From an uncultured Planctomycetia bacterium (lineage in GTDB: Bacteria; Omnitrophota; Gorgyraeia; Gorgyraeales; Gorgyraeaceae): DNA of 64,000 nucleotides. Under the pieces are notes generated by a model, which had not been told where the DNA came from, ran no database searches, and was given only the letters and a program-made list of their open reading frames with translations. The DNA is taken from assembly GCA_964415355.1 (NCBI GenBank), contig CAYPYS010000002.1:74475-138474 (forward strand), written 5' to 3'. Of this stretch, positions 1,364 through 63,810 are shown piece after piece; within the stretch, counting starts at the first letter, position 1; each line of letters begins with the position of its first letter. Made by a program: the position numbers and the translations under genes.

Positions 1364-1394
1364 ACATTTCAACAACGTTAAAGTGTAAAGTTAG
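1364..1394. repeat. R1 palindromic element, 5'-truncated copy
   Basis: acatttcaacaacgttaaagtgtaaagttag. The PfkB-kinase stop (1378-1380) lies inside. Confidence 0.8.
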
Positions 1395-2322
1395 ATAGAA
1401 AAGAATTTACCTGCTTTATGTCTTTTATGCCTTTGCTGGAGCCTGGCTTGGTGCAGATCAAGGCAGATACTGCTGAGGCAAACTCGAGACATGGTTTTAT
1501 GTCGCCAAATACTTTCCTCTCTCCTTTTGTGACTATTTTATGCAGAAGCCCCGCTGTGAAGGCGTCTCCTGCGCCGATCGTGTCAGCTATTTTAACTTTA
1601 AAAGCCGGGCATTTGACTAACTTGCCGCTGGAATCCATGTAAGCAGAGCCTTTGGCTCCGAGCGTCAACACAAATTTGCAGTCAGCCATTTTTTTAAGCT
1701 TCTTCAGGCCTTTTTTCTGATCTTTTTGGCCTGTCAGGAAACGTAAATCTACTTCGCTTATTTTAGCCAGGTCTACCAGTCTTAGTAGATTTAAAACCCT
1801 GCCTTTGACTATTTTTTTATCCTTTATAGCGTAAGGCCTAATGTTTGGGTCAAATGATATAAACACATTTCTTTTCTTGAGATGCTTAATGTATTTTAAG
1901 GCTTCTTCGTAGGTTTCCTTTTGATATGAAAAGCTTGAGCCAAAATGGAAGCATTTGCAGGTATTTAATATCTCTCTCGGGGCATTTTTTAGCGGGACAA
2001 TCGAATCCTTGGCAGCATTTTTATAAAAGACATATTTTGAATTACCTGATTTATCAATGCTTGCTATGGCGAGCGAGGTGTGGATACCAGGGTCTTCGAT
2101 TAGGCCTTTTGTATTAACCCCGCATGATCTTAAGGACCTGACCGCGAATTCTCCCAGGGGATCCTTGCCGATCTTTGACAGCATAGCTGTTTTAAGGCCT
2201 AATTTCGCGCTTATTAAAGCCGAATTAGTAATAGAGCCGCCTGCAGAAGCCGTGAATCTTAGCTTATTTTTATCCTGGATGAGGTCTATAGAGGTGCCGC
2301 CTAAGAAGAGAACATCTATCAT
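1378..2322 (-). CDS. PfkB-family carbohydrate kinase (ribokinase/fructokinase-like)
   Basis: 314 aa. N-terminal GG motif region and C-terminal DTIGAGDAF PfkB signature. Confidence 0.75.
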   Translation of the reverse strand: MIDVLFLGGTSIDLIQDKNKLRFTASAGGSITNSALISAKLGLKTAMLSKIGKDPLGEFAVRSLRSCGVNTKGLIEDPGIHTSLAIASIDKSGNSKYVFYKNAAKDSIVPLKNAPREILNTCKCFHFGSSFSYQKETYEEALKYIKHLKKRNVFISFDPNIRPYAIKDKKIVKGRVLNLLRLVDLAKISEVDLRFLTGQKDQKKGLKKLKKMADCKFVLTLGAKGSAYMDSSGKLVKCPAFKVKIADTIGAGDAFTAGLLHKIVTKGERKVFGDIKPCLEFASAVSALICTKPGSSKGIKDIKQVNSFLSNFTL

Positions 2323-2330
2323 ATAACTCG

Positions 2331-2369
2331 CTAACTTTACATTTCAACAACGTTAAAATGTAAAGTTAG
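2331..2369. repeat. R1 palindromic element
   Basis: ctaactttacatttcaacaacgttaaaatgtaaagttag. Confidence 0.9.
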
Positions 2370-2380
2370 CTTATTTTGTT

Positions 2381-2719
2381 CTATGTTAAGAAATCCAGAA
2401 GATGCCGGCTAAAAAGCAGGAATATCAGCATCACGAGGACAATGATAATGCCGTATAACATCAAAAAGAGATGAGAATGAACAGTGTTTTTTAATAAAGC
2501 ACTGTAGTTTTCTCTTCTTGTCTCGTCGTAACGTGATAACTTGATCCTTTCGTCTCTGGATAAGCCGGGAAAATATGGTTTCCAGTGACGGCATTCATGT
2601 TTTCCTTTGTACCAACGATCAGAGCGCAAGCATTCGATCAGTAAGTTGGTTCCTCTGCCGAATTTGTTATGGCCTTTAAAGTTGCAATTTGCGCAAGATG
2701 TTAATGAAAGCCGACCCAT
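2381..2719 (-). CDS. Hypothetical Cys/His-rich protein with a C-terminal transmembrane segment
   Basis: ORF track, 112 aa. CANCNFKGH...HECRHW, then a hydrophobic tail LFLMLYGIIIVLVMLIFLLF. Confidence 0.35.
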   Translation of the reverse strand: MGRLSLTSCANCNFKGHNKFGRGTNLLIECLRSDRWYKGKHECRHWKPYFPGLSRDERIKLSRYDETRRENYSALLKNTVHSHLFLMLYGIIIVLVMLIFLLFSRHLLDFLT

Positions 2720-2750
2720 ATAATTTTAGCTAATGTATCCCAGGGTTATG

Positions 2751-2918
2751 TTATTTCTTTTTTCCTACCAAAAAATACAGAATCATTCCTACCACAGGTA
2801 ATACTAAGACCAAAACGACCCATAATGCCTTTTTGCCGGCGCTCATGGAGCTTTTTACCGCGTCTACAATAGCAATGATGTCTAGCACTACAATTATCAA
2901 TCCTAATAATCCGCCCAT
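2751..2918 (-). CDS. Small membrane protein (55 aa), PLD-nuclease N-terminal-domain-like
   Basis: Manual translation: MGGLLGLIIVVLDIIAIVDAVKSSMSAGKKALWVVLVLVLPVVGMILYFLVGKKK. GGAGG lies 5 nt upstream of the ATG. More plausible than the overlapping 81-aa track ORF 2746-2991. Confidence 0.45.
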   Translation of the reverse strand: MGGLLGLIIVVLDIIAIVDAVKSSMSAGKKALWVVLVLVLPVVGMILYFLVGKKK

Positions 2919-2941
2919 TTCCGCCTCCTTTTTTGGCTTTA

Positions 2942-3490
2942 TTAACGGCCTTCGTTTTCGTGTACAAGCTCGGCCAAATTCTCAAGGTCAAATTTAAAGG
3001 TCTTGTATTTGCCGCCTTTTTGCATGCTCATTAGCTGTACCCATAACTTGTATTTTTTGCCATCAACTACCTTGTCCGGCGGGATATCGAATAGCATGAG
3101 TTCCCTGGTCAAGGTACCTTTTGCTTTTTTGGTCTCTTTTCCTGAGCCAAAGGTTATAAATCCCTTGTCTTTTTTACTTGTCGGGTATGGCTCCTCATCT
3201 ACTACACCCTGGACGAGTATGGTCTTTGATTCGATGCTCAGGCGCCCTAATCTAGGCCCTACTATTATCGCATTGTGGATCTTTGGCTTTGTCTTGTACA
3301 TCCTGCCCGTTATCTTGGCTTCCAGGATATTTCCTTTTAGGTATGCTTCTACGGCGACTGTTTGTTTTTTGAACTCTTTGGCTTCTCTTAGCATTAGTAT
3401 AGGCTCGTCCTGCGCTTGCAGCACTGTCACCAGGCACGGTACGGATGATATTATGACGATAACCGCTAATAATAATGATATTTTTTTCAT
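2942..3490 (-). CDS. Secreted hypothetical protein (signal peptide)
   Basis: 182 aa. MKKISLLLAVIVIISSVPCLVTVLQAQ signal peptide. No recognisable catalytic motif. Confidence 0.5.
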   Translation of the reverse strand: MKKISLLLAVIVIISSVPCLVTVLQAQDEPILMLREAKEFKKQTVAVEAYLKGNILEAKITGRMYKTKPKIHNAIIVGPRLGRLSIESKTILVQGVVDEEPYPTSKKDKGFITFGSGKETKKAKGTLTRELMLFDIPPDKVVDGKKYKLWVQLMSMQKGGKYKTFKFDLENLAELVHENEGR

Positions 3491-4432: not shown

Positions 4433-4786
4433 TCAGAAAAGTCGTTTTTTTAAGAGTTTTACCCCTATTTCATATGCCGGGTCTTCCGCGTCATCTCTTG
4501 CGGTAAGCTCTTCGAACCACATTACCTTTGCCTTGGATGACAGGGATCCATTGCTATTAGGATCTTCTATTTCCAGTTCAACCGTATGCCCTTTCTGGAT
4601 CTTTTTGTCCACGGGGAACCTTAGGCCATTTCGGGAGATATTTTTTGTTATGCTTTCGCCTCGAGAATCTGACTCGGGATCGAAATATTTTAGCTTCAGC
4701 AGGGCGTCGTATCTCTTCGCGGATCTGCGATCGTCGACAAACCTTTCTTCTCGTTTTGTTTTAAATAACCTTGATGGTATTCTCAT
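4433..4786 (-). CDS. PilZ-domain protein (c-di-GMP receptor)
   Basis: RRSAKR (RxxxR) and NISRNG ([D/N]xSxxG) PilZ motifs. Confidence 0.7.
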   Translation of the reverse strand: MRIPSRLFKTKREERFVDDRRSAKRYDALLKLKYFDPESDSRGESITKNISRNGLRFPVDKKIQKGHTVELEIEDPNSNGSLSSKAKVMWFEELTARDDAEDPAYEIGVKLLKKRLF

Positions 4787-4799
4787 GTTTTACCTTGTT

Positions 4800-4838
4800 C
4801 TAACTTTACACTTTAACGTTGTTGAAATGTAAAGTTAG
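4800..4838. repeat. R1 palindromic element
   Basis: ctaactttacactttaacgttgttgaaatgtaaagttag. Lies between two PilZ genes and contains the stop of 4835-5173. Confidence 0.9.
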
Positions 4839-5173
4839 AGGTTATTGATGAGTCTGCTTATGTAAAGTAGTTGCCTATCCAGGAACTTTATGCCAGCTTC
4901 AAAATGTTCCTCGCTCTCTTTGCTCATAGGCTCATCCCAGATCCAGACTACCTTCCCCCTGCAGCGCGCTTTTATATCCGAGTTATACCTGAATATTTCC
5001 ATATCCAGCGTGGTTCCCGGAGATAGGCTTTTTAAAAGAGACATCCTGACCCCACCCGCGCTGATATTCTTTGTGGTTGTGCAGAATTCCCTATTGCTTC
5101 CAACGGGGCTATACCTTACTGCTAATTCTTTGTCCAGACGTTCGAAGATTCGGCTGTCTGTACTGATACGCAT
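4835..5173 (-). CDS. PilZ-domain protein
   Basis: RIFER (RxxxR) and NISAGG motifs. Stop codon lies inside the R1 repeat. Confidence 0.7.
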   Translation of the reverse strand: MRISTDSRIFERLDKELAVRYSPVGSNREFCTTTKNISAGGVRMSLLKSLSPGTTLDMEIFRYNSDIKARCRGKVVWIWDEPMSKESEEHFEAGIKFLDRQLLYISRLINNL

Positions 5174-6567: not shown

Positions 6568-6606
6568 CTAACTTTACATTTCAACAACGTTAAAGTGTAA
6601 AGTTAG
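6568..6606. repeat. R1 palindromic element
   Basis: ctaactttacatttcaacaacgttaaagtgtaaagttag. Confidence 0.9.
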
Positions 6607-6608
6607 CT

Positions 6609-7077: not shown

Positions 7078-7488
7078 TTATTTATTAGCTTTTGAAGGCG
7101 CCTTTATCTTCAGGCTATCCAGCTCGCTCAGTTTTCCTACCTTTTTATACATCAGATCGCATAAAAACCTTAGAAAGGTATTTTTGTTGTCTTCTTCAAC
7201 ATCGCTAAATTCAATTCCGGCTCCGTAAGACGGACCTTTATTAGTACCGATCTCTTTTGACCACATCACTATACCGTTTAGATGGGCCGGATTCAGCGCG
7301 CCCGGGATAAATATTTTTAACATCAGCTTGTTGCCGTTTTCCAGCTTTTCTTCCGTTAAGAGCTGTAATCCCCCGGCGCTTACGTCTTTAGTTATCCCTG
7401 TTCTTTCAAGCTTAATATCCTTCTTTTGGACGATAAAATTTACTTTCAGGGAGATATCGAACCTTATAAATCTTCTTTTCTCTTTCAT
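7078..7488 (-). CDS. PilZ-domain protein
   Basis: RRFIR and DVSAGG motifs. Confidence 0.7.
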   Translation of the reverse strand: MKEKRRFIRFDISLKVNFIVQKKDIKLERTGITKDVSAGGLQLLTEEKLENGNKLMLKIFIPGALNPAHLNGIVMWSKEIGTNKGPSYGAGIEFSDVEEDNKNTFLRFLCDLMYKKVGKLSELDSLKIKAPSKANK

Positions 7489-8500: not shown

Positions 8501-8827
8501 CTATTTCACTGTTGAGCCTGGCGAAATGTCTTTGTCAGGAGAAAGGACTACTATTTTTTCGCTGTCAGAAGCCGCTAGCACCATGCCCTTACTTTCGACG
8601 CCACGAATCGTAGCAGGCTCTATGTTTTCGACCACAGCCACTAGTTTTTCCTTTAGATCTTCCGGCTTATAAGACTTTTTTATCCCTGCGACTACTTCTC
8701 TTTCTTCTGAGCCCAGGTCTATCTTTAGGATATAAAGCTTATCGGCATTAGGGTGGTCTTTTACCTCTTTTATTCTGGCTATTTTTATGTTCAGTTTCTT
8801 GAATTCCTCAAATGGAATCATGATCAT
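8501..8827 (-). CDS. tRNA-binding domain protein (CsaA/Trbp111/EMAP-like)
   Basis: KDHPNADKLYILKIDLG ... GMVLAASD. Start reassigned to MIMIPFEEF (ATG at 8827), giving an ATGA overlap with the upstream PilZ stop. Confidence 0.7.
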   Translation of the reverse strand: MIMIPFEEFKKLNIKIARIKEVKDHPNADKLYILKIDLGSEEREVVAGIKKSYKPEDLKEKLVAVVENIEPATIRGVESKGMVLAASDSEKIVVLSPDKDISPGSTVK

Positions 8828-9183
8828 GCCCTCGCCTTCTCTAGCTCGGAAAACATAAGACCGCATATGTATTCCAAGAAGTTGTTTTTTGCTTTCAGGT
8901 CTATTTCTTCGAATTTAATCCCAATGTCTATTTTACCAGCTTTTTCGCCAACTGTCCATACTACCTTGCCTATGGCAGAAATAGGCCTTAGTAGTGCTGG
9001 TATGAAGATTTCCATCTCAAGCCAATCCCCTTTTTTAATCTGCTTTGGTAATAATGCTCTTATGCCGCTGGGGCTTATGTTTTTAGTGACGGCTTTTTTT
9101 GGCGGCGTCTTCGAATCCTTGATCTTATAGGTAAAGTCCAAGGCTGCTTCTAATCTGATATACTTTCTTCTCTCTTTTATCAT
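8824..9183 (-). CDS. PilZ-domain protein
   Basis: RRKYIR and NISPSG motifs. Confidence 0.7.
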   Translation of the reverse strand: MIKERRKYIRLEAALDFTYKIKDSKTPPKKAVTKNISPSGIRALLPKQIKKGDWLEMEIFIPALLRPISAIGKVVWTVGEKAGKIDIGIKFEEIDLKAKNNFLEYICGLMFSELEKARA

Positions 9184-9311
9184 ATGCTATAGCCTCCATT
9201 GTCGAATATTGCGGTTTTACTGGGGAATTTTACAGATATGCAAGGTGGATTTCTTCGCGGGGATGGCACGCCTGTACCTGTGCCTAGCAAGGTTATTTCC
9301 ATATTTTCTGT

Positions 9312-9349
9312 TAAGTATACATTTTAACGTTGTTGAAATGTATACTTAG
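9312..9349. repeat. R1v (GTATACA-arm variant) palindromic element
   Basis: taagtatacattttaacgttgttgaaatgtatacttag. Contains the stop of 9346-9825. Confidence 0.85.
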
Positions 9350-9825
9350 TCTTTGACCACCTTTAGCTTGTTTAAATGCGTTAGTAATATGGCTTCTGAT
9401 TCAGGAGCTATCTTTATAAATTTTATCCCTACGTAAAACAGGCGCCTGCCTCGCTCATCCTGAGACTGCATGTCCTTTATCCACATAACCTGTCCTATAA
9501 ACTTCACGGGCTTTGAAAACCCGGGGACCTCTACCTCTAGATCAAGATGTTTCTTTTCATTAAGTTTTTCATAGGTCAGAAGACAGAGTCCTTTTTTTGA
9601 AAGATTTATAGTCTTGGATTCCTGGAAACGGGGCGCTTTGGGCAATAGATTGTATCCGATCTTAAGGTTCTCATCAAACCTGACATACATCCTTCTTTCC
9701 CTCAGCTCCCAGAATTTCCTGGCCAGGCCATGGGTAGTGCTTTTTTTAAGCCTTTTCTCCTCGTTTTTTAGCAGGATCAATATTATACATAAAAATATCA
9801 GTAAGGTTGAATAAAATAAATACAT
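9346..9825 (-). CDS. PilZ-domain protein with an N-terminal TM anchor
   Basis: N-terminal hydrophobic helix, RERRMYVR and INLSKKG motifs. Stop inside the R1v repeat. Confidence 0.65.
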   Translation of the reverse strand: MYLFYSTLLIFLCIILILLKNEEKRLKKSTTHGLARKFWELRERRMYVRFDENLKIGYNLLPKAPRFQESKTINLSKKGLCLLTYEKLNEKKHLDLEVEVPGFSKPVKFIGQVMWIKDMQSQDERGRRLFYVGIKFIKIAPESEAILLTHLNKLKVVKD

Positions 9826-13011: not shown

Positions 13012-13050
13012 CTAAGTTTACACTTTAACGTTGTTGAAATGTAAAGTTAG
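13012..13050. repeat. R1 palindromic element
   Basis: ctaagtttacactttaacgttgttgaaatgtaaagttag. Contains the stop of 13047-13448. Confidence 0.9.
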
Positions 13051-13448
13051 GAGAGTTTTATGTCGACTTCCTTGATCGTTCCAGGATTAGCGCTTCCTGA
13101 TTCTACGTAGGACTCCAGGGCCTTCCTGTCCTTTTCGGAAATGTCCGTAAAGAATATGGCGGTGTTATGGTGCGCCTTGTCAGTGTTTTTCAATATTACG
13201 GGTTCTGTCCTGACCACGACCCCCTTGCACCTTATTTTTTTAGCCTGCTTGGGCCTAGAGCTATTTTTCTGCGGCACCATAAGCACTACTTCTATCTTGG
13301 ACATCAGCGGAAGCAGCCTTGTCACCCTGCAGTATATCCCGCTTGAACTTACATCCACGGTCTCCGTGATTATGTCGAATGCCTTGTCGGCGATCTTGAG
13401 CGGGAGGCTGCCTTTTGCCCTGAGATGTTTTCTGCGCTCTTCTATCAT
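13047..13448 (-). CDS. PilZ-domain protein
   Basis: RRKHLR and VDVSSSG motifs. Stop inside R1. Confidence 0.65.
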   Translation of the reverse strand: MIEERRKHLRAKGSLPLKIADKAFDIITETVDVSSSGIYCRVTRLLPLMSKIEVVLMVPQKNSSRPKQAKKIRCKGVVVRTEPVILKNTDKAHHNTAIFFTDISEKDRKALESYVESGSANPGTIKEVDIKLS

Positions 13449-13455: not shown

Positions 13456-13890
13456 CTATGCCTTCTTCTCTTCTTTTTTAGCTTCTGCTTTTTTCTTGTC
13501 CTGGTCTGCCAGCTTCCAGCATCTTTTGCTGCAGTAATAGCCGTTGTTCCTGTAATACCAGGATTTTCTTTTCAGGTGTTTGTTGCATTTCATGCAGTTG
13601 GTCGGTTTTTCAATTACCTGAGGTTCTTTTGGTTCTTTCTTTTCTTTAGCAGGCGCCTTTGGCGTTTCTTTGGGGGTCTCCTGAGGGGTCTCCTTGGGAG
13701 CTTCTTTGGAAGTCTCTTTAGGCGCCTCTTTGGGCGTTTCTTTGGTGGTTTCTTTTGTTGGTTCTTCAGCCGGAGCCGGTTCTTTCTTTGCTTCTTCTTT
13801 CTTGGGCTCTGCCTTTGCCTCTTCAGGCGCCTTTACTTCTTCCTGTTTTTCTTCCTGAGGCTGCTTAGCTTCTTTTGCTTCGTCTGCCAT
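13456..13890 (-). CDS. Low-complexity K/E/P/T-rich protein with a C-terminal C-x2-C-x17-C-x2-C zinc finger
   Basis: Tandem KETPKEAPKET repeats. C-terminal CMKCNKHLKRKSWYYRNNGYYCSKRC. Confidence 0.5.
   Translation of the reverse strand: MADEAKEAKQPQEEKQEEVKAPEEAKAEPKKEEAKKEPAPAEEPTKETTKETPKEAPKETSKEAPKETPQETPKETPKAPAKEKKEPKEPQVIEKPTNCMKCNKHLKRKSWYYRNNGYYCSKRCWKLADQDKKKAEAKKEEKKA
13676..13762. repeat. ~12-nt tandem repeat (≈7 units) encoding KE(T/A)PKE tetrapeptide repeats
   Basis: Direct reading shows tcctgaggggtc / tccttgggagct / tctttggaagtc / tctttaggcgcc / tctttgggcgtt ... Confidence 0.5.
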
Positions 13891-15448: not shown

Positions 15449-15487
15449 TCAACTTTACATTTCAACAACGTTAAAGTGTAAACTTAG
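15449..15487. repeat. R1 palindromic element
   Basis: tcaactttacatttcaacaacgttaaagtgtaaacttag. Confidence 0.85.
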
Positions 15488-15951: not shown

Positions 15952-16251
15952 TTAGATAGTTATAGGGGGGCCTAAGAATTTCGCGCCCACAGAAAACCTT
16001 TCAGAATACGGCTGGCTCGATGCCCAGACAACTTCCCCTACTGCTTTTATGTAGCTCTTGGTCTCCGGGTGCTGGACTTCGAATATCAGGTGGGTGCGAA
16101 TAGGAAAATACTCGTTCGAGATAAAGCCTATACCGTTTTGGCTTATATCCCGTCCTATCGAATTGCCGAATCTTTGGGAGCCTTTTCTCTGGTAGCGGAT
16201 AGCGCAGGATAGCGGGATCCTCATTGATTCTCTTTTGTCAATAGCTTTCAT
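15952..16251 (-). CDS. PilZ-domain protein
   Basis: RESMR and DISQNG motifs. Confidence 0.65.
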   Translation of the reverse strand: MKAIDKRESMRIPLSCAIRYQRKGSQRFGNSIGRDISQNGIGFISNEYFPIRTHLIFEVQHPETKSYIKAVGEVVWASSQPYSERFSVGAKFLGPPITI

Positions 16252-16282
16252 GACATCATTCTAACACATAACTTATTGCTTG

Positions 16283-16728: not shown

Positions 16729-16767
16729 CTAACTTTACACTTTAACGTTGTTGAAGTGTAAAGTTAA
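16729..16767. repeat. R1 palindromic element
   Basis: ctaactttacactttaacgttgttgaagtgtaaagttaa. Lies in the divergent region between a PilZ gene and ExeA. Confidence 0.9.
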
Positions 16768-21413: not shown

Positions 21414-21430
21414 ATTTTGAAGTATATATT

Positions 21431-21489
21431 CCAACAACGTTAAAGCCTGCCCCGCGTGACTTAAGGAAGTAAAGCGGGGTGTAAAGTTA
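21431..21489. repeat. R1 element interrupted by a 35-bp GC-hairpin insertion (21446-21480)
   Basis: ccaacaacgttaaag + [cctgccccgcgtgacttaaggaagtaaagcggggt] + gtaaagtta. Contains the stop of 21487-21768. Confidence 0.75.
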
Positions 21490-21768
21490 TTTTTTCTTTT
21501 CTTCTTTTTTGTCTGCCTTAGGAGCGGCTTCTTTCGGAGCAGTTGCCTGTGCTTCAGAGCCGGCTGCCTGAGCTTCTTCCGGTTTTTCTTCCGCTTTTTC
21601 CTTCTTGATCTTTGTCCTTACTATTTTCAGCTTTGGCATACCGAAGACGGAATCGTCCTCTTTCAATATGCCTTTTTCTTTTAAGGTAAAGAACTTTTCA
21701 AACCTTTTTAATACGCTCCTGTGTTTTTTTCCTGCCTTTGAAGTTTTCAAACTAGGATGCTGTGACAT
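21487..21768 (-). CDS. Small basic hypothetical protein
   Basis: 93 aa, K/E-rich. Stop inside a disrupted R1 copy. Confidence 0.4.
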   Translation of the reverse strand: MSQHPSLKTSKAGKKHRSVLKRFEKFFTLKEKGILKEDDSVFGMPKLKIVRTKIKKEKAEEKPEEAQAAGSEAQATAPKEAAPKADKKEEKKK

Positions 21769-25219: not shown

Positions 25220-25258
25220 TTAACTTTACACTTTAACGTTGTTGAAGTGTAAAGTTAG
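25220..25258. repeat. R1 palindromic element (adjacent to R2)
   Basis: ttaactttacactttaacgttgttgaagtgtaaagttag. Contains the stop of the HIT gene. Confidence 0.9.
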
Positions 25259-32537: not shown

Positions 32538-32576
32538 TACCCGCTTTCTAACTTTACACTTTAACGTTGTTGAAAT
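32538..32576. repeat. R1 palindromic element
   Basis: ctaactttacactttaacgttgttgaaatgtaaagttag. Confidence 0.9.
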
Positions 32577-32588
32577 GTAAAGTTAGGA

Positions 32589-45968: not shown

Positions 45969-45986
45969 GCCTCTGATGTCCTCGCT

Positions 45987-46023
45987 TAAGTATACATTTT
46001 AACAATGTTGAAATGTATACTTA
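45987..46023. repeat. R1v variant palindromic element
   Basis: taagtatacattttaacaatgttgaaatgtatactta. Confidence 0.85.
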
Positions 46024-46815
46024 TTTTTTTCTATAGGCGTCTATATATGAGTCGCAGTAGAGTTGCTTTTCCATGACGAGTTCTGCAGTTATCGCGGCTT
46101 CCATCAGGTCCTTGTCTTCAGAGTCCATAATCGCCGCGTCAAGGCCAACGCTTATCGCCATTGATAAAAATGTACGGTTTATAAGCGATTTATACTTTGG
46201 CAATGCACCTTGAGATACATTTGATAGCCCTAAAATCGTTTTTGGCGCAGGATCCGCGAGCATCTTCGATTCTCTTATTGTTCTCAGCACCTCTTTTCCG
46301 TGGCCTTGCGCTACATTGACAGGCAGGATCACAGAGTCGATATATAGGTCTTGTGTGTTAAAGCCGAATTCCACGCATGAGGCCACGATTTTCATGGCCA
46401 ATTCCAAGCGGCCGTCAGCGTCCTTTGGTATGCCCGACTTGTCCATGGTCAGGCCTATCATGGAGGCGTTGTATTTTTTTGCAAGAGGAAAAAGTGCTTT
46501 TATTTTATCTTCATTCGCGTTTACGGAATTTATTATTGCTTTTGACTTGCATGCAGCTAGACCTGTCTCCATCACGTCCTGCTTGGTCGTGTCTATGGCG
46601 AGAGTTATGTCAGTGACTTCAGCGATCGTTTTTACGAGCCATTCCATCGTGGCTTTCGGGTCATCCGAAGCAGGACCCACGTTTACGTCCAGCGCGTTCG
46701 CGCCGCACTGGATCTGTTTCTTCGCAAGTCCCTGTATGACAGACTTGTCTTTTTTCTTTATTGCTTCCGCAACGTCTTTAAACATCCCGTTGATGCGCTC
46801 ACCTATTACGTACAT
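46021..46815 (-). CDS. acsE: Methyltetrahydrofolate:corrinoid/iron-sulfur protein methyltransferase (pterin-binding MeTr)
   Basis: MYVIGERINGMF N-terminus. Pterin-binding TIM-barrel pattern. Confidence 0.65.
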   Translation of the reverse strand: MYVIGERINGMFKDVAEAIKKKDKSVIQGLAKKQIQCGANALDVNVGPASDDPKATMEWLVKTIAEVTDITLAIDTTKQDVMETGLAACKSKAIINSVNANEDKIKALFPLAKKYNASMIGLTMDKSGIPKDADGRLELAMKIVASCVEFGFNTQDLYIDSVILPVNVAQGHGKEVLRTIRESKMLADPAPKTILGLSNVSQGALPKYKSLINRTFLSMAISVGLDAAIMDSEDKDLMEAAITAELVMEKQLYCDSYIDAYRKK

Positions 46816-48525: not shown

Positions 48526-48564
48526 CTAACTTTACACTTTAACGTTGTTGAAATGTAAAGTTAG
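48526..48564. repeat. R1 palindromic element (intra-operonic, between RACo and cooC)
   Basis: ctaactttacactttaacgttgttgaaatgtaaagttag. Contains the RACo stop. Confidence 0.9.
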
Positions 48565-50531
48565 AGGAGTTTTTTTACAGACGGGAATGCTTCTATGTCT
48601 GTGTGCGGTAAAAACAGGGCCGCACTGTAATTATTCATAAAATGTGGATTTGTGCTCAGATCGAGATATGTCATTTTATCCGCTATGAGGTTTGCCTTTT
48701 TCATCGCCTCGCTTGATAAGACACACATCTTTGCTCCTGTCACAGAGGTATTGCCCAAAAATTCGAATTTTTTCTCAGGCAGATCCGGCAGAAGCCCGAT
48801 ATTTATAGCTGACCTGATGTTTAAGGCCGCGCCCAGGCCGCCGGCGATGAATACATGCTTTAAATCCGATTTTTTGAAGCCGGATTCTTTTAACAACACC
48901 TCGATGCCGGTATAAATAGCGCCCTTAGAATGGATCACATTTTTAATATCATTCTCATCGATCGTTATATCTTTGCCCGTGGCCGATTTCTTTTTATCTA
49001 CGAGTACGATCTTTTTTATGCCGTCAGCATCTATTACTTTAAAAATTTTATTTTCTTTTATTTTCCCTGAACGGTCTATGACTTTATTTTCCATAAATAC
49101 GCTCAACGCGTCTATTATGCCTGAGCCGCATATGCCTTTCGGAGGCTTATTGCCTATAGTCCTTATGGCAAGCTTATTATTTTTTACAGAGACACCTTGT
49201 ATGGCCCCGGCCATCGCCCTTATACCTGAGCTCAGGCCTCCTCCTTCGAAGCATGGCCCTGCAGAAGTCGAACAGGTGACGTAGTAGTCTTTATTGCCCA
49301 AGACCACTTCACCATTTGTCCCCATATCTATGAAGAGAGAGATATCTTTTGAATTATCCATGCCTGAAGCCAGTACTCCTCCGACAATATCGCTTCCGAC
49401 ATAGCTCCCGACGCAAGGGAGGCAGGATAACAGCCCCCTCGGGTTTATTTTTATCCCGGCCTCTGCTGCTCTTATAACCGGCATAAAATTTACAGCAGGG
49501 ATATAGGGTTCTTTTCTTATGTATCCCGGGTCTATTTTTAGAAGAAGGTGCATCATCGTGGTGTTGCCGGCACACATGACTGCCGTAATATCGTCCAGGG
49601 TCAGGTCCTGTTCTTTCGAGAGACTGTATATAAGGACATTTATCGTATCTATGACGACATGATGAAGTTTCTCCAGCCCGCTTTCTTTCTCTGCGTATAC
49701 GATCCTCGATATGATGTCCTCTCCAAAGTCTACCTGCGGGTTGTAGCTCGCCCTGGCGCCAAGCACTTTTTGTGATTTTAGATTTACAAGATACGCGACA
49801 ATGGTGGTTGTCCCTATATCCAGCGCTATGCCGAAGTTTTTGGCAGACCTATTGCCCGGCTCTATCAAAACGATTTCCGTTGTATTGTTCCTGCTCCCAA
49901 GCGTTGCTGTGATCTGCCAATCGCTTTCTCTTAAAAGGTGGGGTAGTTTTTTTATATTGGCCAATCCCATCTGCATAACAGGGATATCCCCGTTCTTTCT
50001 TATCTCTCTGAAGAGCCTTTCCATGTCGCTGCAGTTATCGTCTATCGAAGGCGGCGAGAGATTCAGGAATAATTTTGTAGACAGAGGCCCGTGCTTGAAT
50101 ATCTTTGTTTCTGCCCCCAGGTGCTCTTCTTCTATTTTTTCCGCAGGGGTGTAGAGCCCTGCAAGCCTCTTTGCCTTTGCTTCTTCTGTCAAGACCTCTA
50201 TGTCTCCCAGTCTGGACTCCTCCGGCACGAGGACAGTCATGTCAGACTCAGGCGTGGTCCTGCAGGCCAAAACATAGCCTTTTTTGCGTTCTTTTTCAGA
50301 AATCCTTCCGCTGTGCTCGGTTATGAATTTGCCTTTTTTAATAATAACCTTGCATCTGCCGCAGACCCCTTCTCCCCCACAGCTATTATATATATGTATG
50401 CCAGATTTAATAGCAGCGGTCAGGAGGTCTGTGCCTTTATCTACAGAAACAGTCCTCTTTTCAGGCAAAAATGTTACGACAACGTTTTCCATAATAGACT
50501 TAATTTTAACATGGCAGGCTATAAGGGTCAA
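48561..50531 (-). CDS. Reductive activator of corrinoid Fe-S protein (RACo-like): N-terminal 2Fe-2S ferredoxin + ASKHA ATPase domain
   Basis: CGGEGVCGRCKV plant-type ferredoxin motif. ~620 aa ASKHA-like C-domain. The start may be M14 (ATG 50492) instead of TTG 50531. Confidence 0.55.
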   Translation of the reverse strand: MTLIACHVKIKSIMENVVVTFLPEKRTVSVDKGTDLLTAAIKSGIHIYNSCGGEGVCGRCKVIIKKGKFITEHSGRISEKERKKGYVLACRTTPESDMTVLVPEESRLGDIEVLTEEAKAKRLAGLYTPAEKIEEEHLGAETKIFKHGPLSTKLFLNLSPPSIDDNCSDMERLFREIRKNGDIPVMQMGLANIKKLPHLLRESDWQITATLGSRNNTTEIVLIEPGNRSAKNFGIALDIGTTTIVAYLVNLKSQKVLGARASYNPQVDFGEDIISRIVYAEKESGLEKLHHVVIDTINVLIYSLSKEQDLTLDDITAVMCAGNTTMMHLLLKIDPGYIRKEPYIPAVNFMPVIRAAEAGIKINPRGLLSCLPCVGSYVGSDIVGGVLASGMDNSKDISLFIDMGTNGEVVLGNKDYYVTCSTSAGPCFEGGGLSSGIRAMAGAIQGVSVKNNKLAIRTIGNKPPKGICGSGIIDALSVFMENKVIDRSGKIKENKIFKVIDADGIKKIVLVDKKKSATGKDITIDENDIKNVIHSKGAIYTGIEVLLKESGFKKSDLKHVFIAGGLGAALNIRSAINIGLLPDLPEKKFEFLGNTSVTGAKMCVLSSEAMKKANLIADKMTYLDLSTNPHFMNNYSAALFLPHTDIEAFPSVKKLL

Positions 50532-50533: not shown

Positions 50534-50546
50534 CTAACTTTACACA
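50534..50546. repeat. R1 left-arm fragment
   Basis: ctaactttacaca, followed directly by an inverted R2. Confidence 0.6.
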
Positions 50547-50553: not shown

Positions 50554-50578
50554 TGTCATTCCCGCAAAAGCGGGAATC
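50554..50578. repeat. R2 hairpin element, inverted orientation, AAAA loop
   Basis: tgtcattcccgcaaaagcgggaatc. Confidence 0.8.
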
Positions 50579-50597
50579 TATAAAATACTCAATCCAT

Positions 50598-50623
50598 GGA
50601 TCCCCGTTTTCACGGGGATGACA
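50598..50623. repeat. R2 hairpin element, divergent copy
   Basis: ggatccccgttttcacggggatgaca (arms co-varied: CCCCG/CGGGG). Confidence 0.75.
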
Positions 50624-50661
50624 TAGAGAAAAACCCTGTCGAGATGGGTCTCAACAGGGTT
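50622..50661 (-). terminator. Intrinsic terminator for the lipoprotein gene
   Basis: Minus-strand stem AACCCTG...CAGGGTT followed by UUUUUCUCU, 30 nt downstream of the stop at 50691. Confidence 0.55.
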
Positions 50662-50690
50662 TATGGGCGATGGACAAATGCCTTGAAAAA

Positions 50691-51594: not shown

Positions 51595-51633
51595 TTAACT
51601 TTACATTTCAACAACGTTGAAGTGTAAAGTTAG
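51595..51633. repeat. R1 palindromic element
   Basis: ttaactttacatttcaacaacgttgaagtgtaaagttag. Contains the lepA stop. Confidence 0.9.
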
Positions 51634-54892: not shown

Positions 54893-54932
54893 CTTAAGTT
54901 TACATTTCAACAACGTTAAAGTGTAAACTTAA
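54893..54932. repeat. R1 palindromic element with a compensated G/C arm swap
   Basis: cttaagtttacatttcaacaacgttaaagtgtaaacttaa. Contains the rpe stop. Confidence 0.85.
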
Positions 54933-55612: not shown

Positions 55613-55625
55613 TGAGCTCTCCTAT

Positions 55626-55651
55626 GGATTCCCGCGTTCGCGGGAATGACA
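55626..55651. repeat. R2 hairpin element
   Basis: ggattcccgcgttcgcgggaatgaca, directly upstream of the rpe SD (AGGAGA). Confidence 0.85.
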
Positions 55652-58392: not shown

Positions 58393-58431
58393 CTAACTTT
58401 ACACTTTAACGTTGTTGAAATGTAAAGTTAG
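58393..58431. repeat. R1 palindromic element
   Basis: ctaactttacactttaacgttgttgaaatgtaaagttag. Contains the trpA stop. Confidence 0.9.
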
Positions 58432-59224: not shown

Positions 59225-59263
59225 CTAACTTTACATTTCAACAACGTTAAAGTGTAAAGTTAG
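59225..59263. repeat. R1 palindromic element (between trpB and trpA)
   Basis: ctaactttacatttcaacaacgttaaagtgtaaagttag. Contains the trpB stop. Confidence 0.9.
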
Positions 59264-60435
59264 GCGTACACGTCTTTTATTATATCTATGTCTTTATCGC
59301 CCCTGCCGGAAAGACATACGACAATAATCTTATTTTTGGTTAGTTTCGGCGCGAGTCTCTTTACCGCGTAGTAAATCGCGTGACTCGGTTCCAGCGCCGG
59401 TATAATCCCCTCTGCTTCGCATAAGATCTTAAATCCCTCGAGTGCTTCTTTGTCTGTCACGGATACATATTTTGCCCTGCCGGTTTCTTTGTAATAAGAG
59501 TGTTCAGGGCCTACGCCTGGATAATCTAATCCGGCAGAGATCGAATGAGCAACTGTTATTTGACCATCTTTACTTTGCAATAGATAGCTTTTGCTCCCAT
59601 GTAATACGCCTGGCTTTCCTTTGCAGAGAGCTGCGCCATGTTTTCCGCTGTCCAGGCCTAGCCCGCCCGCCTCCACGCCTATAAATTTAACCTTTGTATT
59701 GAAAAATGAATGAAATATCCCTATTGAGTTGCTTCCTCCTCCGACGCACGCAACCAAATAATCCGGAAGTTTCTTTTCATATTTTAAAATTTGCCTCTTT
59801 GACTCTTTGCCTATTATAGCTTGAAAATCCCTGACCATTGCAGGATATGGGTGCGGACCTACGACAGATCCGATTATGTAATGAGTTGTCCTTACGTTTG
59901 TGACCCAGTCTCTTATTGCTTCATTGGTAGCGTCTTTTAAAGTCTTGCTGCCAGAGTGCACAGGGATAACTCTTGCACCCAGGAGTTTCATTTTAAATAC
60001 ATTGAGCTTTTGCCGCTCTATATCCTCTACGCCCATATAAACGTCGCATGGAAGACCGAATACAGCTGCAGCGGTAGCGGTTGCGACTCCGTGCTGGCCT
60101 GCCCCTGTCTCTGCTATTATGCGTGACTTGCCCATCTTTACAGCGAGGAGCGCCTGGCCGAGCGTATTGTTTATTTTGTGCGCGCCTGTGTGGAGCAGGT
60201 CCTCTCTCTTTAGATATATCCTTGCACCATATTTCTTAGAGAGATTTTTGGCAAAGTAGAGCGTTGTTGGTCTGCCTGCGTAAACGCTCAGCAAGCTATT
60301 CAGCTCTCGTTTGAATTTAGTATCCCGGAGAGCTTTTTTATATTCTTTCTCGAGCTCTTGAAGCGCTACCATAAGCGTTTCAGGCACAAACTTTCCACCA
60401 AAACCCTGAAATTTACCCCTTTTATCAGGCAGCAT
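59260..60435 (-). CDS. trpB: Tryptophan synthase beta chain
   Basis: [14 protein letters not shown]-lysine motif. 391 aa. Confidence 0.9.
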
Positions 60436-60504
60436 ATATTTCCCCCATATATAGCTTATAAATTATATAGTAAAAAAGGCAGGGTGTCAATAGTAAGGCT
60501 GAAA

Positions 60505-60542
60505 TAAGTATACATTTCAACATTGTTGAAATGTATACTTAA
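60505..60542. repeat. R1v variant palindromic element
   Basis: taagtatacatttcaacattgttgaaatgtatacttaa. Confidence 0.85.
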
Positions 60543-62503: not shown

Positions 62504-63114
62504 TTTTTAAAAAGACTTATTTTTTTCTCTTCACCCTTTCGCAATCGCTTTAAGTTAGACTTATGTTTGTATACGATAATAACGCACAGGATGCTCATGA
62601 ATACGATTATTTCCGTTGGTTCGCCGAATATTAACGTGAATATCGGGATTGCAACAGAGGCTAAAATCGAGGCGACCGACACATACCCTGTCAGGAAGAA
62701 CGCTATTGCCCATGCCAGGAAACCGAGCCAGAATATCTTAGGTATGAGCCCTATGACGACGCCTGCGCTTGTAGCGACACCTTTACCGCCTTTAAATTTC
62801 AGAAATACCGGCCAGTTATGACCGGTTATCGCGGCCATGCCGCACAGGACCTGATATAATTCAGGCCTCGTTACCGGCGTTATATACAGGAATGAATTTG
62901 CGATTAAAGTCGTTGCCATATATCCTTTGAATATATCTATGGCCAGTACGATGATCGCCGGCACCCTGCCTATTACCCTGGAAGCATTTGTAGCACCTAC
63001 GTTCCCGCTTCCATATTGTCGTATATCGACGCCCTTAAGTAATCGCGCGAATATGTAGGCCGTGGGCACTGATCCAATTAAATAAGCAACTATTACTCCT
63101 AAAAATAATACCAT
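62500..63114 (-). CDS. plsY: Glycerol-3-phosphate acyltransferase PlsY
   Basis: GSGNVGATN motif, multi-TM, 204 aa. Confidence 0.85.
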   Translation of the reverse strand: MVLFLGVIVAYLIGSVPTAYIFARLLKGVDIRQYGSGNVGATNASRVIGRVPAIIVLAIDIFKGYMATTLIANSFLYITPVTRPELYQVLCGMAAITGHNWPVFLKFKGGKGVATSAGVVIGLIPKIFWLGFLAWAIAFFLTGYVSVASILASVAIPIFTLIFGEPTEIIVFMSILCVIIVYKHKSNLKRLRKGEEKKISLFKK

Positions 63115-63125
63115 GAGTTCCTTTT

Positions 63126-63151
63126 GGATTCTCGCTTTCGCGGGGATGACA
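63126..63151. repeat. R2 hairpin element, divergent copy
   Basis: ggattctcgctttcgcggggatgaca, directly upstream of the plsY SD. Confidence 0.75.
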
Positions 63152-63155
63152 GCGC

Positions 63156-63196
63156 CTTAAGTATACATTTTAACATTGTTGAAATGTATACTTAAG
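63156..63196. repeat. R1v variant palindromic element (adjacent to R2)
   Basis: cttaagtatacattttaacattgttgaaatgtatacttaag. Confidence 0.85.
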
Positions 63197-63205
63197 AAAA
63201 GTGAT

Positions 63206-63763
63206 TTAAGATTTTTGGAGTTCACTTAGCTGTTTCGAGCCGCGCCATATATAGTCTATGCCGGAAAGCGCAGTAAAAAATACAGCCGGATAAATAAGGA
63301 ATTTATTGTATTTAAAAATTGCAAGAATTGCCAATATGGATATCATCTGGAAAAAAGTAGTTATTTTTCCGAGAAAGCTCGGTTTTATAGCTATATTTCC
63401 TTTTAAAAAATAGATCACCAAAGAACCGAGTACGATTATAATATCTCTGGTTATGACTGTAAGGACTGCCCACGCAGGAATGCGGATATCAGCGGGTATA
63501 TTGCCAATAACCGAAAGAGTAATGAATGCACTCGATATCAGAAGCTTGTCGGCAATTGGGTCCAAGATGATACCTAATTCAGTCACTTCTCCGCGACTTC
63601 GAGCAATGCCTCCGTCGATAGCATCTGCGAATGCGGCTATTGCAAAAAGAGCCAAGGCTGCGAACCTCAGAAAGGTCCGTCCCTCGCCATAATACAAAAG
63701 ACTGGCTATAAAAAATGGTATTAAAAGTATGCGAAAGATTGTAATTTTATTAGCTAGATTCAT
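63206..63763 (-). CDS. pgsA: CDP-diacylglycerol--glycerol-3-phosphate 3-phosphatidyltransferase (CDP-alcohol phosphatidyltransferase family)
   Basis: DAIDGGIARSRGEVTELGIILDPIADK CDP-OH motif. Confidence 0.8.
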   Translation of the reverse strand: MNLANKITIFRILLIPFFIASLLYYGEGRTFLRFAALALFAIAAFADAIDGGIARSRGEVTELGIILDPIADKLLISSAFITLSVIGNIPADIRIPAWAVLTVITRDIIIVLGSLVIYFLKGNIAIKPSFLGKITTFFQMISILAILAIFKYNKFLIYPAVFFTALSGIDYIWRGSKQLSELQKS

Positions 63764-63771
63764 AGCATTCT

Positions 63772-63810
63772 CTAACTTTACACTTTAACATTGTTGAAAT
63801 GTAAAGTTAG
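63772..63810. repeat. R1 palindromic element
   Basis: ctaactttacactttaacattgttgaaatgtaaagttag. Contains the stop of the partial terminal CDS. Confidence 0.9.

Follow-up and report, generated by a model that had tools for sequence, protein, structure and literature searches.

A TA-bounded palindromic repeat that supplies stop codons in an Omnitrophota chromosome is probably a mobile REP/MITE-like element

Rickettsia palindromic elements (RPEs) insert in frame within genes and are translated. The attC site of integrons is an imperfect palindrome just 3' of an ORF, with …YAAC and GTTR… ends that may overlap the stop codon, and E. coli REPs lying within about 15 nt of a stop reportedly lower translation of the upstream gene (Liang, Rudd & Deutscher 2015). 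REPs of the GTAG and CGTC types are 20–40-nt imperfect palindromes that form species-specific families of hundreds of copies, lie mostly downstream of ORFs, probably as transcribed hairpins with G·T pairs, and have termini (those of GTAG REPs) that often give flanking ORFs their stop codon (Di Nocera et al. 2013, PMC3733652). The pneumococcal IS630-type MITE RUP, which has an identifiable parent IS (IS630-Spn1), and the 155-bp Correia element of Neisseria both carry stop codons in all six frames (PMC2229807). IS630/Tc1 elements generate a TA duplication on insertion, with CTAG the favoured target of IS630 (PMC2170065, with the Tenzen references therein). The use of REP termini as stop codons and the presence of six-frame stops in MITEs are thus already published.

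Here we describe R1, which we regard as a new REP/MITE-like family with behaviour of a known kind. It shares the above features with REPs, including high copy number, with 26 copies or remnants counted per 64 kb. With IS630/Tc1-mariner-type MITEs (RUP; Correia/NEMIS) it has in common terminal inverted repeats, an intergenic location and, for RUP and Correia, the six-frame stops, but those elements are about 100–160 bp long and R1 is about 33 bp, two ends with a 3-nt gap and no known parent IS. TA duplication, documented along with CTAG preference for IS630/ISY100, is represented in R1 by one clean pair and by consistency elsewhere. Like RPEs, R1 appears to be a palindromic selfish repeat interacting with ORFs in a compact genome, but it closes reading frames rather than extending them. 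As with E. coli REPs near stops, a stable hairpin falls within the ribosome footprint of the stop, although in R1 the stop codon is within the stem itself.

The window, meaning the whole 64-kb stretch analysed, comes from an uncultured Omnitrophota bacterium (the nearest homologues of its LepA and ThiC are labelled Candidatus Omnitrophota) and is a compact chromosome segment of roughly 82 genes with housekeeping functions throughout. R1 is a 39-nt quasi-palindrome with the consensus N-TA-A(C/G)TTTACA…TGTAAA(G/C)T-TA-N, found in both orientations (about 13:11). Matches within 3 mismatches numbered 20, against 0 expected; looser searches brought the tally to 22 copies of the full 39 nt, one more of full length but slightly degenerate (15449), and three that are truncated or interrupted (1356, 21428 and 50534). 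One subfamily, R1b, reads TTAAGTATACA…TGTATACTTAA. The same R1 sequence is present in independent JGI, ENA and NCBI assemblies and is therefore no assembly artefact. In the window R1 is strictly extragenic, never inside an ORF. The copies are given below in window coordinates, without strand; filled and empty refer to the same site in related genomes.

1356..1394, truncated R1, far (left) arm gone; inner TAA 1378-1380 stops a 314-aa PfkB-family gene in frame 3
2331..2369, R1, 8 nt ahead of where gene 1378-2322 starts, uncoupled to any called stop
4800..4838, R1, terminal TAA 4835-4837 is the stop of a PilZ gene; next gene starts 13 nt past the other arm
6568..6606, R1, starts 2 nt past the TAA stop at 6609
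9311..9349, R1b-type, terminal TAA 9346 is a PilZ gene stop
13012..13050, R1, terminal TAA 13047 is a PilZ gene stop
15449..15487, R1, slightly degenerate (TCAAC… end), 21 nt downstream of stop 15508
16729..16767, R1, at no stop codon, in the divergent spacer between minus-strand gene 16283-16657 and plus-strand gene 16812-17624
21428..21490, R1 split by a 34-nt GC-rich hairpin (CCCCGC…GCGGGG); though interrupted, its terminal TAA 21487 is still the stop of a 93-aa gene
25220..25258, R1, terminal TAA 25255 is the stop of a HIT-family gene; R2 hairpin next; also filled in sister species L098
31452..31490, R1, 8 nt past TGA stop 31498
32548..32586, R1, 2 nt past the PFK TAA stop 32589; empty in L098 and L100
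38172..38210, R1, terminal TAA 38207 is the stop of a conserved 50-aa Trm112-like gene; empty in L098
43047..43085, R1, 25 nt past a TGA stop and flush against the rpsU promoter's -35 hexamer (CTTGACA); empty in L093, copy 4 nt off in L090
45514..45552, R1, terminal TAA 45549 is the YjbQ stop; empty in L090 and L093, where it reads GAA TAG
45986..46024, R1b, terminal TAA 46021 is the stop of a pterin-binding (AcsE-like) gene
48526..48564, R1, terminal TAA 48561 is the RACo stop
50534..50544, lone R1 arm (CTAACTTTACA), adjoining an inverted R2 hairpin pair and a TTGACC/TAAAAT promoter
51595..51633, R1, terminal TAA 51630 is the LepA stop; empty in L090, opposite-orientation copy in L093, remnant with internal deletion in L103
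53432..53470, R1, terminal TAA 53467 is the phosphoglucomutase (PGM) stop; junction free of R1 in L090, L093 and L103
54894..54932, R1 with G/C-swapped arms, terminal TAA 54929 is the ribulose-phosphate epimerase stop
58393..58431, R1, terminal TAA 58428 is the TrpA stop; filled in L090 too
59225..59263, R1, terminal TAA 59260 is the stop of a 391-aa gene
60504..60542, R1b, terminal TAA 60539 is the DEAD_2 helicase stop; a sigma-70 promoter (12/12 match) starts 13 nt past it
63157..63195, R1b, 11 nt past stop 63206; R2 hairpin next
63772..63810, R1, terminal TAA 63807-63809 ends a frame that stays open for 63 codons or more up to the window edge

In total, R1 supplies 16 terminal-arm TAA stops, all to minus-strand genes, and one inner TAA, so that about one in five (about 20%) of the genes in the window end within it. 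Stop coordinates were checked against the ORFs and independent gene calls, and the stops proved genuine, lying inside the element rather than upstream of it. The sequence-only reading had listed 15 such stops; 13 of these (4835 to 59260 above, other than 46021) were exact, 63808 should be 63807, and 1378 had been assigned to a terminal arm when it is the inner TAA (CTT TAA). The list also lacked 46021 and 60539, both in R1b copies. Random juxtaposition falls far short of explaining the coupling: of the 16 fully contained in-element stops (17 with the gene that runs past the window edge), 15 share a single frame (binomial p about 8e-7 relative to equal use of the frames). None of the copies in the window overlaps a TGA stop, every coupled stop being TAA; near TGA genes, R1 lies 8–25 nt downstream of the stop.

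The R1 consensus does hold a stop in every frame of either strand (positions 2, 15 or 24, and 31), as had been proposed, but this property alone is not beyond chance: six-frame stops occur in 21% of random palindromes with the arm composition of R1 and in 7.5% of R1 shuffles. They are lost in R1b copies of the same window and in related families of other genera, which argues against a universal translation stop maintained by selection. The likeness to a designed all-frame stop cassette likewise lacks support, since only the terminal TAA is universal and the remaining frames come into play no more than occasionally, when small indels intervene; at the 31452 site in L098, for example, a 20-nt deletion joins the ORF to R1, and the stop falls at R1 position 31, adding 10 aa. 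Nor is there support for selection for genome compaction, also suggested earlier. The median spacer is 53.5 nt with R1 and 2 nt without, so intergenic DNA here comes mainly from R1, which is no space saver.

The element proper, A(C/G)TTTACA–core–TGTAAA(G/C)T, measures about 33 nt and has TA on each side; it is effectively two roughly 16-nt inverted ends and a 3-nt spacer. TA occupies positions 2-3 and 37-38 in 40 of 42 copies. Bases 1 and 39, at the outer edges, fail to pair with each other in 13 of 29 distinct sequences and thus behave as target flanks, and positions 5/35 and 7/33 covary through compensatory arm changes.

R1 is also present in sister species at 82–86% nucleotide identity, at lower density than in the window, and is polymorphic for presence or absence. 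The cleanest empty/filled pair is the junction between the ribulose-phosphate epimerase and PGM genes (54894..54932 in the window), which in L093 is empty, CTCCGTTAAGAAG, and in the window is filled, CTCCG-TTAA-[31 nt]-TTAA-GAAG, with identical flanks and a net insertion of 35 nt with duplication of TA (or TTAA). The suggestion of insertion precisely at or over stop codons is supported: several of these junctions lack R1 in sister genomes, and when they are filled the upstream protein still finishes at the same codon (LepA …LKI*, PGM …NI*), with TAG turned to TAA at filled sites (YjbQ, GAA-TAG when empty and GAC-TAA when filled). Other junctions reconstruct as N-TA-N targets whose original stop codon was TAG or TAA, except that at 38172 and 60504 the pre-insertion 'stop' reconstructs as TAT. 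At the rpsU promoter, independent insertions used slightly different TA sites. Only one pair is perfectly clean; at PGM|LepA, PFK|SIS and LepA|S26 the spacer beyond R1 differs between species as well, so that extra indels or substitutions must be invoked.

We think it probable that R1 is a miniature, non-autonomous, REP-/MITE-like palindromic repeat that inserts into TA, and its coupling to stops is most likely a side effect of the insertion of tiny selfish DNA, not a purpose-built stop signal. R1 would have spread within one genus-level Candidatus Omnitrophota lineage, with siblings in other genera, by entering and duplicating TA dinucleotides, mostly in CTAG, TTAA or CTAA contexts. Where the target TA belongs to a TAA or TAG stop, insertion would rebuild TAA at the same codon, on either strand and with the protein unchanged; TAA would always be regenerated because the element proper begins with A and ends with T. 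Gene spacing in the window is mostly 0–20 nt, and the TA of the stop would usually be the sole site, or one of two, to tolerate 35 extra bases. Other landings would damage an ORF or the next ribosome-binding site, so that surviving copies would accumulate on stop codons. If insertion is uniform across TA sites within the stop and spacer, stop coupling is expected at 11.8 of 21 junctions, compared with 15 of 21 observed. Internal stops in other frames would be a by-product of an AT-rich palindrome, and would limit damage once small indels fuse an ORF to R1.

The chemistry may be of the TA-duplicating (DDE, IS630/Tc1-like) kind and R1 may still be mobile. A transposase with ends matching R1 was not found in the window or at syntenic loci. 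To our knowledge, no MITE is as short as this ~33-nt element, and with 3 nt between them its two ends could not form a mariner-like synapse as duplex DNA. Movement as single-stranded hairpin DNA by a Y1 (RAYT or IS200-IS605-like) transposase, with the terminal TAAC/GTTA as a cleavage tag rather than a TA target duplication, would make R1 a REP-type element. Its 39-nt size, its imperfect palindrome with conserved mismatches and its extragenic, mostly ORF-downstream location with stop-supplying termini match published REPs, and GTAG REPs are reported from the PVC superphylum (PMC3733652). We nonetheless consider this improbable, as R1 has no unpaired GTAG or CGTC tag, its ends being identical, paired and TA-bounded (CTAAC…GTTAG); its stem is 16–18 bp, compared with 5–13 in REPs; its copies are singletons, the closest pair 472 nt apart, rather than head-to-head or tail-to-tail dimers or clusters; and no orientation bias is seen despite uniform GC skew and gene direction. 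The terminal direct repeat at the clean empty site would not be expected of REP/IS200-type insertion, and no Y1 transposase (RAYT) is among the called genes. More improbable still is a double-stranded DNA site, be it a dimeric-protein operator, a DNA-uptake sequence or an attC-like recombination site. A pair of identical half-sites would likewise account for the symmetric, highly conserved arms and their compensatory changes, three copies have a strong -35 hexamer 0–13 nt downstream, and the CTAAC…GTTAG ends resemble the RYYYAAC/GTTRRRY core sites of attC, which R1 also recalls in its place directly 3' of ORFs. However, a promoter would not fit in the tight gaps between co-directional ORFs that hold most copies, half-site symmetry is disturbed at two conserved asymmetric positions (C·A and T·G), and R1 is strictly extragenic, unlike uptake sequences. 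The surrounding genes are syntenic housekeeping operons, not cassettes, with no integrase; orientation is mixed, 39 nt is below the attC range, extrahelical bases are lacking and bases past GTTAG are not conserved.

The near-consensus state of most copies and the junctions shared across several genera could, as a point against mobility, reflect selection for a host function. R1 might then be retained as useful RNA punctuation, a transcribed 16–18-bp hairpin within operons that reaches from the stop codon to a few nt before the next ribosome-binding site, whatever its manner of spread. It could block 3'→5' exonucleases, offer RNase III a place to process the transcript (the window encodes this enzyme at 18157-18921) or couple termination to re-initiation, the terminating ribosome melting the 5' arm and freeing the region ahead of the next start. 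In its favour, the RNA of either orientation forms a stable fold (-13 to -18 kcal/mol, z -5 to -7), G·U is accepted at 12/28 and 15/25, changes between copies restore pairing, and the layout is regular, with the stop in one arm and the next start 2–20 nt past the other, often after GGAG. R1-family elements also fill the RACo|CooC junction (the 48526 site) in 7 of 11 Omnitrophota lineages examined and lie upstream of the rpsU promoter in 3, and the effect that E. coli REPs are said to have on upstream-gene translation provides a parallel. The transcribed hairpin may have some effect, but we consider its retention for this reason unlikely. Sister species freely leave orthologous junctions empty, without a replacement structure, orientation is random and subfamilies swap at one site. 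Orthologous copies carry 3–6 differences per 39 nt, about the background rate (15–18% genome-wide), and some copies lie between divergent genes in a promoter region (16729) or immediately ahead of promoters. At 30–40% junction occupancy, chance alone would give about the observed sharing between genera, and the sense strand has no U-tract, so R1 is not an intrinsic terminator.

The wider distribution is consistent with a TA-inserting mobile repeat. About 0.99 Mb of more distant Omnitrophota loci contain no R1 with its own core, only sibling families that share its arms. These families of other genera keep the 10-nt ends and differ in their cores, as expected for termini recognized by a transposase. 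Turnover is indicated by a nested insertion (21428) and by remnants with internal deletions (L103 and 1356), as is usual for decaying mobile DNA. Against this reading, flank preference varies by lineage, C/T…G/A in the window compared with A/G…C/T in L018 and L011.

Twenty-six copies of R1, a 39-nt repeat, lie in the 64-kb window, every one of them extragenic or overlapping a stop codon only. The 33-mer proposed in the sequence-only reading matched the window 20 times at ≤3 mismatches (0 expected), and looser searches brought the set to 22 complete 39-nt copies, one more at 15449 that is full-length but slightly degenerate, and three that are truncated or interrupted (1356, 21428 and 50534). 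All copies are single, with a closest spacing of 472 nt, and their orientation is mixed (~13:11 on the plus strand) despite uniform gene direction and GC skew. The consensus, CTAACTTTACA-C-TT-T-AAC-GTT-GTT-G-AA-A-TGTAAAGTTAG, is an 18-bp quasi-palindrome around a 3-nt centre, with non-Watson-Crick pairs at two positions (12/28 and 15/25), and its RNA folds in both orientations, with energies between -13 and -18 kcal/mol and z between -5 and -7. A subfamily, R1b, carries compensatory arm changes (TTAAGTATACA…TGTATACTTAA; copies at 9311, 45986, 60504 and 63157).

In a set of 42 copies taken from the window and its sister species, TA occupies positions 2-3 and 37-38 in 40, position 4 is an invariant A and position 36 an invariant T, pair 5/35 alternates between C-G and G-C, and pair 7/33 between T-A and A-T; the terminal inverted repeats, with arms of 10–16 nt, are invariant or compensatory throughout. 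The outermost bases, 1 and 39, are unpaired in 13 of 29 distinct sequences and therefore behave as flanking (target) nucleotides, giving a unit of N-TA-[33 nt]-TA-N. A longer mobile unit was considered on the basis of a 15-nt exact match (CTGTAAAAAAACTCC) preceding the copies at 48564 and 54932, but this match is a coincidence, as it codes conserved C-termini (…SVKKLL and …AVKKLR) present in distant orthologues without R1. R1 had no Rfam match in the window at the gathering threshold, at which the sole match was a single tRNA gene (28162-28232, minus strand, 72.5 bits) amid an otherwise protein-coding run; none of the viral contigs searched contained R1, and we found no literature on palindromic repeats in Omnitrophota beyond mentions of CRISPR. 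Within Omnitrophota, R1 constitutes a new family of small interspersed palindromic repeats.

The terminal-arm TAA of R1, at the outer end of the element, is the stop codon of 16 genes, each identified from ORFs and independent gene calls:

Gene ends at an R1 terminal-arm TAA, and one at an inner TAA
4835, minus strand, gene end
9346, minus strand, gene end
13047, minus strand, gene end
21487, minus strand, gene end
25255, minus strand, gene end
38207, minus strand, end of a conserved 50-aa Trm112-like protein
45549, minus strand, gene end
46021, minus strand, gene end
48561, minus strand, gene end
51630, minus strand, gene end
53467, minus strand, gene end
54929, minus strand, gene end
58428, minus strand, gene end
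59260, minus strand, gene end
60539, minus strand, gene end
63807, minus strand, end of a frame that runs open to the window end
1378, minus strand, gene end at the inner TAA of a truncated R1 copy, not at the terminal arm

The sequence-only reading had seen this correctly and slightly understated it: of its 15 stop coordinates 13 were exact, one was off by one base and one had been given the wrong TAA, and two further genes were missed. Genes ending inside R1 make up ~20% of roughly 82 genes and one third of all TAA-terminated genes, and no TGA or TAG stop in the window is overlapped by R1. Fully contained in-element stops number 16 (17 counting the gene that runs off the window), and 15 of the 16 share one frame, which is incompatible with random phase (p ~8e-7). 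Among 19 copies in sister species, ~10 end a long ORF via the terminal TAA, 3 or 4 via the inner TAA (for example, RACo in L090, +KFTL) and 2 via the distal TAA; the CTP-transferase-like gene of L098 uses the distal TAA, with ten added residues after a 20-nt deletion. Stop-codon provision, the most striking property of R1, is a known behaviour of small palindromic repeats.

R1 had also been proposed as a universal translation stop on the strength of its stops in all six frames. The consensus does contain stops in three of three frames on both strands (at positions 2, 15 or 24, and 31). This property also arises in 7.5% of R1 shuffles and 21% of random palindromes matched to R1 in arm composition, and it is lost in R1b copies of the window, which have one frame without an internal stop, and in related families of other genera, which have one or two; only the terminal TAA is universal across R1, R1b and the related families. 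Being common by chance and not conserved, the six-frame property is not special and argues against selection for a universal stop. RUP, CIR and the 155-bp Correia element likewise carry stops in all six frames (PMC2229807).

Syntenic contigs, reached via LepA and ThiC homologues with 90–95% identity, came from sister species, at least three in number, whose nucleotide identity to the window is 82–86% (loci L090, from MAG CAYULJ01, L093, L098/L099, L100 and L103), and allowed junctions between neighbouring genes to be compared with and without R1:

Gene junctions in the window and in sister species
RPE/PGM: window …CTCCG-TTAA-GTTTACA…GTAAAC-TTAA-GAAGAAAGGG; L093 empty, …CTCCGTTAAGAAGAAAGGG
YjbQ/HPS: window GAC TA-[R1]-TA G; L090 and L093 empty, GAA TAG
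PGM/LepA: window ATC TAA, within R1; L090 ATC TAA without R1
LepA/S26: window …LKI* with R1; L090 without R1, genes overlapping (ATGA); L093 R1 reversed relative to the window; L103 (2876-2895) an internally deleted R1 remnant, CTAACTTTACATACTTAAG, that still provides the LepA TAA
Upstream of the rpsU promoter: window R1 adjoins the -35; L090 R1 in a different TA, 4 nt off; L093 empty

At RPE/PGM both flanks are identical between the window and L093, with a net insertion of 35 nt bordered by a TA (or TTAA) direct repeat. This is the one clean pair; six further junctions are compatible with TA insertion yet carry extra changes. At least six R1 junctions of the window are empty in L090, L093, L098 or L100, so its gain and loss take place over the time in which species diverge. 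Insertion over stop codons, as the sequence-only reading had suggested, is borne out at these junctions, where R1 lands on a pre-existing stop and leaves the upstream protein essentially unchanged, with TAG becoming TAA. The L103 remnant indicates that the element-derived stop codon outlives the element. The opposite orientations at LepA/S26 in the window and L093 may stem from separate insertions, from gene conversion between copies or from a core that inverted in situ. Strain-level polymorphism was uninformative, as eight same-population contigs were 99.8–100% identical with zero indels.

R1 is densest in the genome of the window (0.41 per kb, compared with 0.11–0.23 per kb in sister species), and its sequence does not occur in 0.99 Mb of loci from more distant Omnitrophota. 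Distant genomes (LepA ~76% identical) instead contain sibling families with the same 10-nt ends, TAAGTTTACA…TGTAAACTTA, and genome-specific cores, which also give a TAA stop to RACo, S26 peptidase and other genes. Orthologous retention across genera was rejected as proof of function, since 30–40% of junctions are occupied and sharing is thus at about chance level.

Target choice and gene spacing suggest why R1 so often supplies stops. The element proper begins with A and ends with T, so insertion into the TA of a TAA or TAG would, on either strand, rebuild TAA at the same codon. A TGA contains no TA to insert into. Spacers are short at the 54 junctions without R1 (median 2 nt; 38 are ≤10 nt or overlapping), and spacers at R1 junctions cluster at 41–55 nt, equivalent to 35 nt added to a spacer of 6–20 nt. 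With pre-insertion spacers reconstructed and insertion taken as uniform over the TA dinucleotides of stop and spacer, 11.8 stop-coupled copies are predicted among 21 junctions, conditional on these being occupied, and 15 were observed. TA targeting, with purifying selection acting on so compact a genome, would explain most of the stop coupling without dedicated stop-codon recognition. The other explanation offered earlier, selection for genome compaction, runs against the finding that R1 is the main contributor to intergenic length, spacers being longer where it is present.

By our analysis R1 would fit a MITE of the IS630/Tc1-mariner type, on account of its apparent TA duplication, its preference for CTAG/TTAA-like contexts, its conserved ends around interiors that vary, a case of nested insertion (21428) and remnants in decay; such elements duplicate TA, and IS630 favours CTAG (PMC2170065). 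Against this assignment, extra changes accompany every empty/filled pair but one, two of the reconstructed insertion targets would read TAT, and flank preferences differ in other genera. No transposase or integrase, including the Y1 transposase RAYT, was found among the genes called in the window or the syntenic loci, and no full-length IS with R1 ends and a DDE transposase, or arm pairs at IS-like spacing, in any fetched locus. We know of no characterised MITE resembling a ~33-nt element with ends 3 nt apart. REPs share with R1 a short palindromic unit (20–40 bp, versus 39 nt), many extragenic copies and a documented tendency to provide stop codons (PMC3733652), but they are defined by an unpaired GTAG/CGTC at one end (PMC3733652) whereas R1 ends are symmetrical and paired (N-TAAC…GTTA-N) and carry neither tag, and they frequently form head-to-head or tail-to-tail dimers and clusters whereas R1 copies are single. 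An attC-like site was rejected given the ~13:11 orientation, the syntenic housekeeping operons, the short length and the lack of a called integrase. A Rho-independent terminator was likewise rejected: the R1 stem is 28% GC, coding-strand copies have no U-tract, and a terminator scan of 44–64 kb flagged no R1 on the coding (minus) strand, its flagged cases being antisense only. A textbook intrinsic terminator, AAACCCTGT…ACAGGGTTT with a U-tract, lies at 50631-50662 (minus strand), 3' of a glycine-zipper gene. Canonical terminators are thus in use in this organism, and R1 does not belong to them.

A transcribed R1 hairpin could serve the host as a stabiliser, an RNase III site or a means of termination–reinitiation coupling, roles compatible with a selfish origin. 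As the reason for the observed pattern, however, host function sits poorly with the free presence and absence of R1 between sister species, its random orientation, and orthologous copies that diverge like background. We regard it as improbable that R1 and its sibling families are a phylum-wide, domesticated operon punctuation in Omnitrophota or, in a weaker form, the smallest TA-duplicating mobile element known (~33 bp). Such punctuation could consist of shared ends (TA-A(C/G)TTTACA), lineage-specific cores and a stop codon at the hairpin base; it could determine how stable mRNA segments are, how RNase III processes them or how termination is coupled to reinitiation between adjacent genes, and could be kept across genera at set junctions such as RACo/CooC and upstream of rpsU. 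If the weaker form were true, a ~33-bp element would have rewritten ~20% of a genome's stop codons from TAG to TAA.

R1 supplies most of the intergenic DNA of an otherwise extremely compact genome from an uncultured phylum, and the stop codon of about one-fifth of its genes. This bears on gene calling and MAG assembly in Omnitrophota, as a near-identical 39-nt repeat every 2.5 kb can break contigs, and also on stop-codon usage statistics and on strain and species markers. TA-targeted insertion and tight gene spacing offer a simple mechanistic reason for small palindromic repeats so often 'providing' stops. Since stop provision in general has already been described for REPs and MITEs, R1 extends known biology and does not change it.

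The window has a GC content of ~42–45%, with GC skew below zero in 15 of 16 windows and cumulative skew declining throughout, and almost all of its ORFs are on the minus strand. The large ORFs encode LepA, ThiC, biotin carboxylase, phosphoglucomutase, M16 peptidases, the corrinoid activator RACo and a DEAD_2 helicase, and independent gene calls on identical metagenome contigs added EF-P, PFK, TrpA, RuvX, RNase III, S21 and numerous PilZ proteins. A phage origin, hinted at by the one-strand layout, was rejected, as phage records gave no nucleotide match and the proteins are cellular housekeeping enzymes. The closest named homologues of LepA and ThiC are from Candidatus Omnitrophota, and the window therefore comes from an uncultured Omnitrophota chromosome; its sequence was recovered at 99.8–100% identity in several JGI and ENA metagenomes. 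R1 also has an exact match in MAG CAYULJ01 (GCA_964445715.1; loci L005-L009 and L090), titled 'uncultured Planctomycetia bacterium', the LepA of which is 95% identical to that of the window. With nearest named relatives in Candidatus Omnitrophota, this Planctomycetia label looks wrong or outdated.

Several local features accompany the repeats. Strong sigma-70-type promoters begin 0–13 nt past the distal arm of a whole or half R1 copy, and the R1-then-promoter layout upstream of rpsU is also found in L090 and in L018, from another Omnitrophota lineage:

Promoters beside R1
60462-60490, minus strand, 12/12 match to TTGACA-17-TATAAT, precedes a 391-aa gene (59260-60435)
50503-50531, minus strand, precedes RACo
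~43015-43046, minus strand, precedes rpsU

The only two plus-strand genes in 64 kb (16812-18176) encode a 270-aa AAA_22/SLFN-like ATPase and a protein of 179 aa without a Pfam match; they may be an inserted island, and the divergent spacer beside them holds an R1 copy (16729). Small single-domain PilZ proteins are unusually dense (at least nine in ~17 kb, from Pfam on called genes; for example, in 4433-5044, 7078-7488, 8824-9825, 13047-13448 and 15952-16657), and several end in R1. A periodic 12/24-nt repeat of TCTTTGGGGGTCTC-like units (13643-13752), within a 144-aa minus-strand ORF (13456-13890), implies a predicted low-complexity, repetitive protein segment.

A second repeat, R2 (TGTCATTCCCGCGAAAGCGGGAATCCA), folds into a GC-rich stem of 8 bp closed by a GAAA loop (-13.6 kcal/mol), matches the window five times against 0.04 expected, and usually lies just downstream of an R1 copy:

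R2 copies
21387-21413
25189-25215
50558-50577 and 50597-50623, inverted pair
55625-55651
63125-63151

The orthologous R2 copy in L098 has a compensatory stem change (ATTTCCGC…GCGGAAAT), and the form ATTCCC-N8-GGGAAT is reminiscent of Neisseria dRS3 repeats. A GC-rich 34-nt hairpin, CCTGCCCCGCGTGACTTAAGGAAGTAAAGCGGGG, is nested within an R1 copy (21446-21479), and other, unrelated palindromes occupy R1-type junctions in sister genomes, namely in L100 (~1070-1140), L090 (~13330-13400) and the RACo/CooC spacers of L010 and L014. Gene-end spacers thus appear to be hotspots for several hairpin families.
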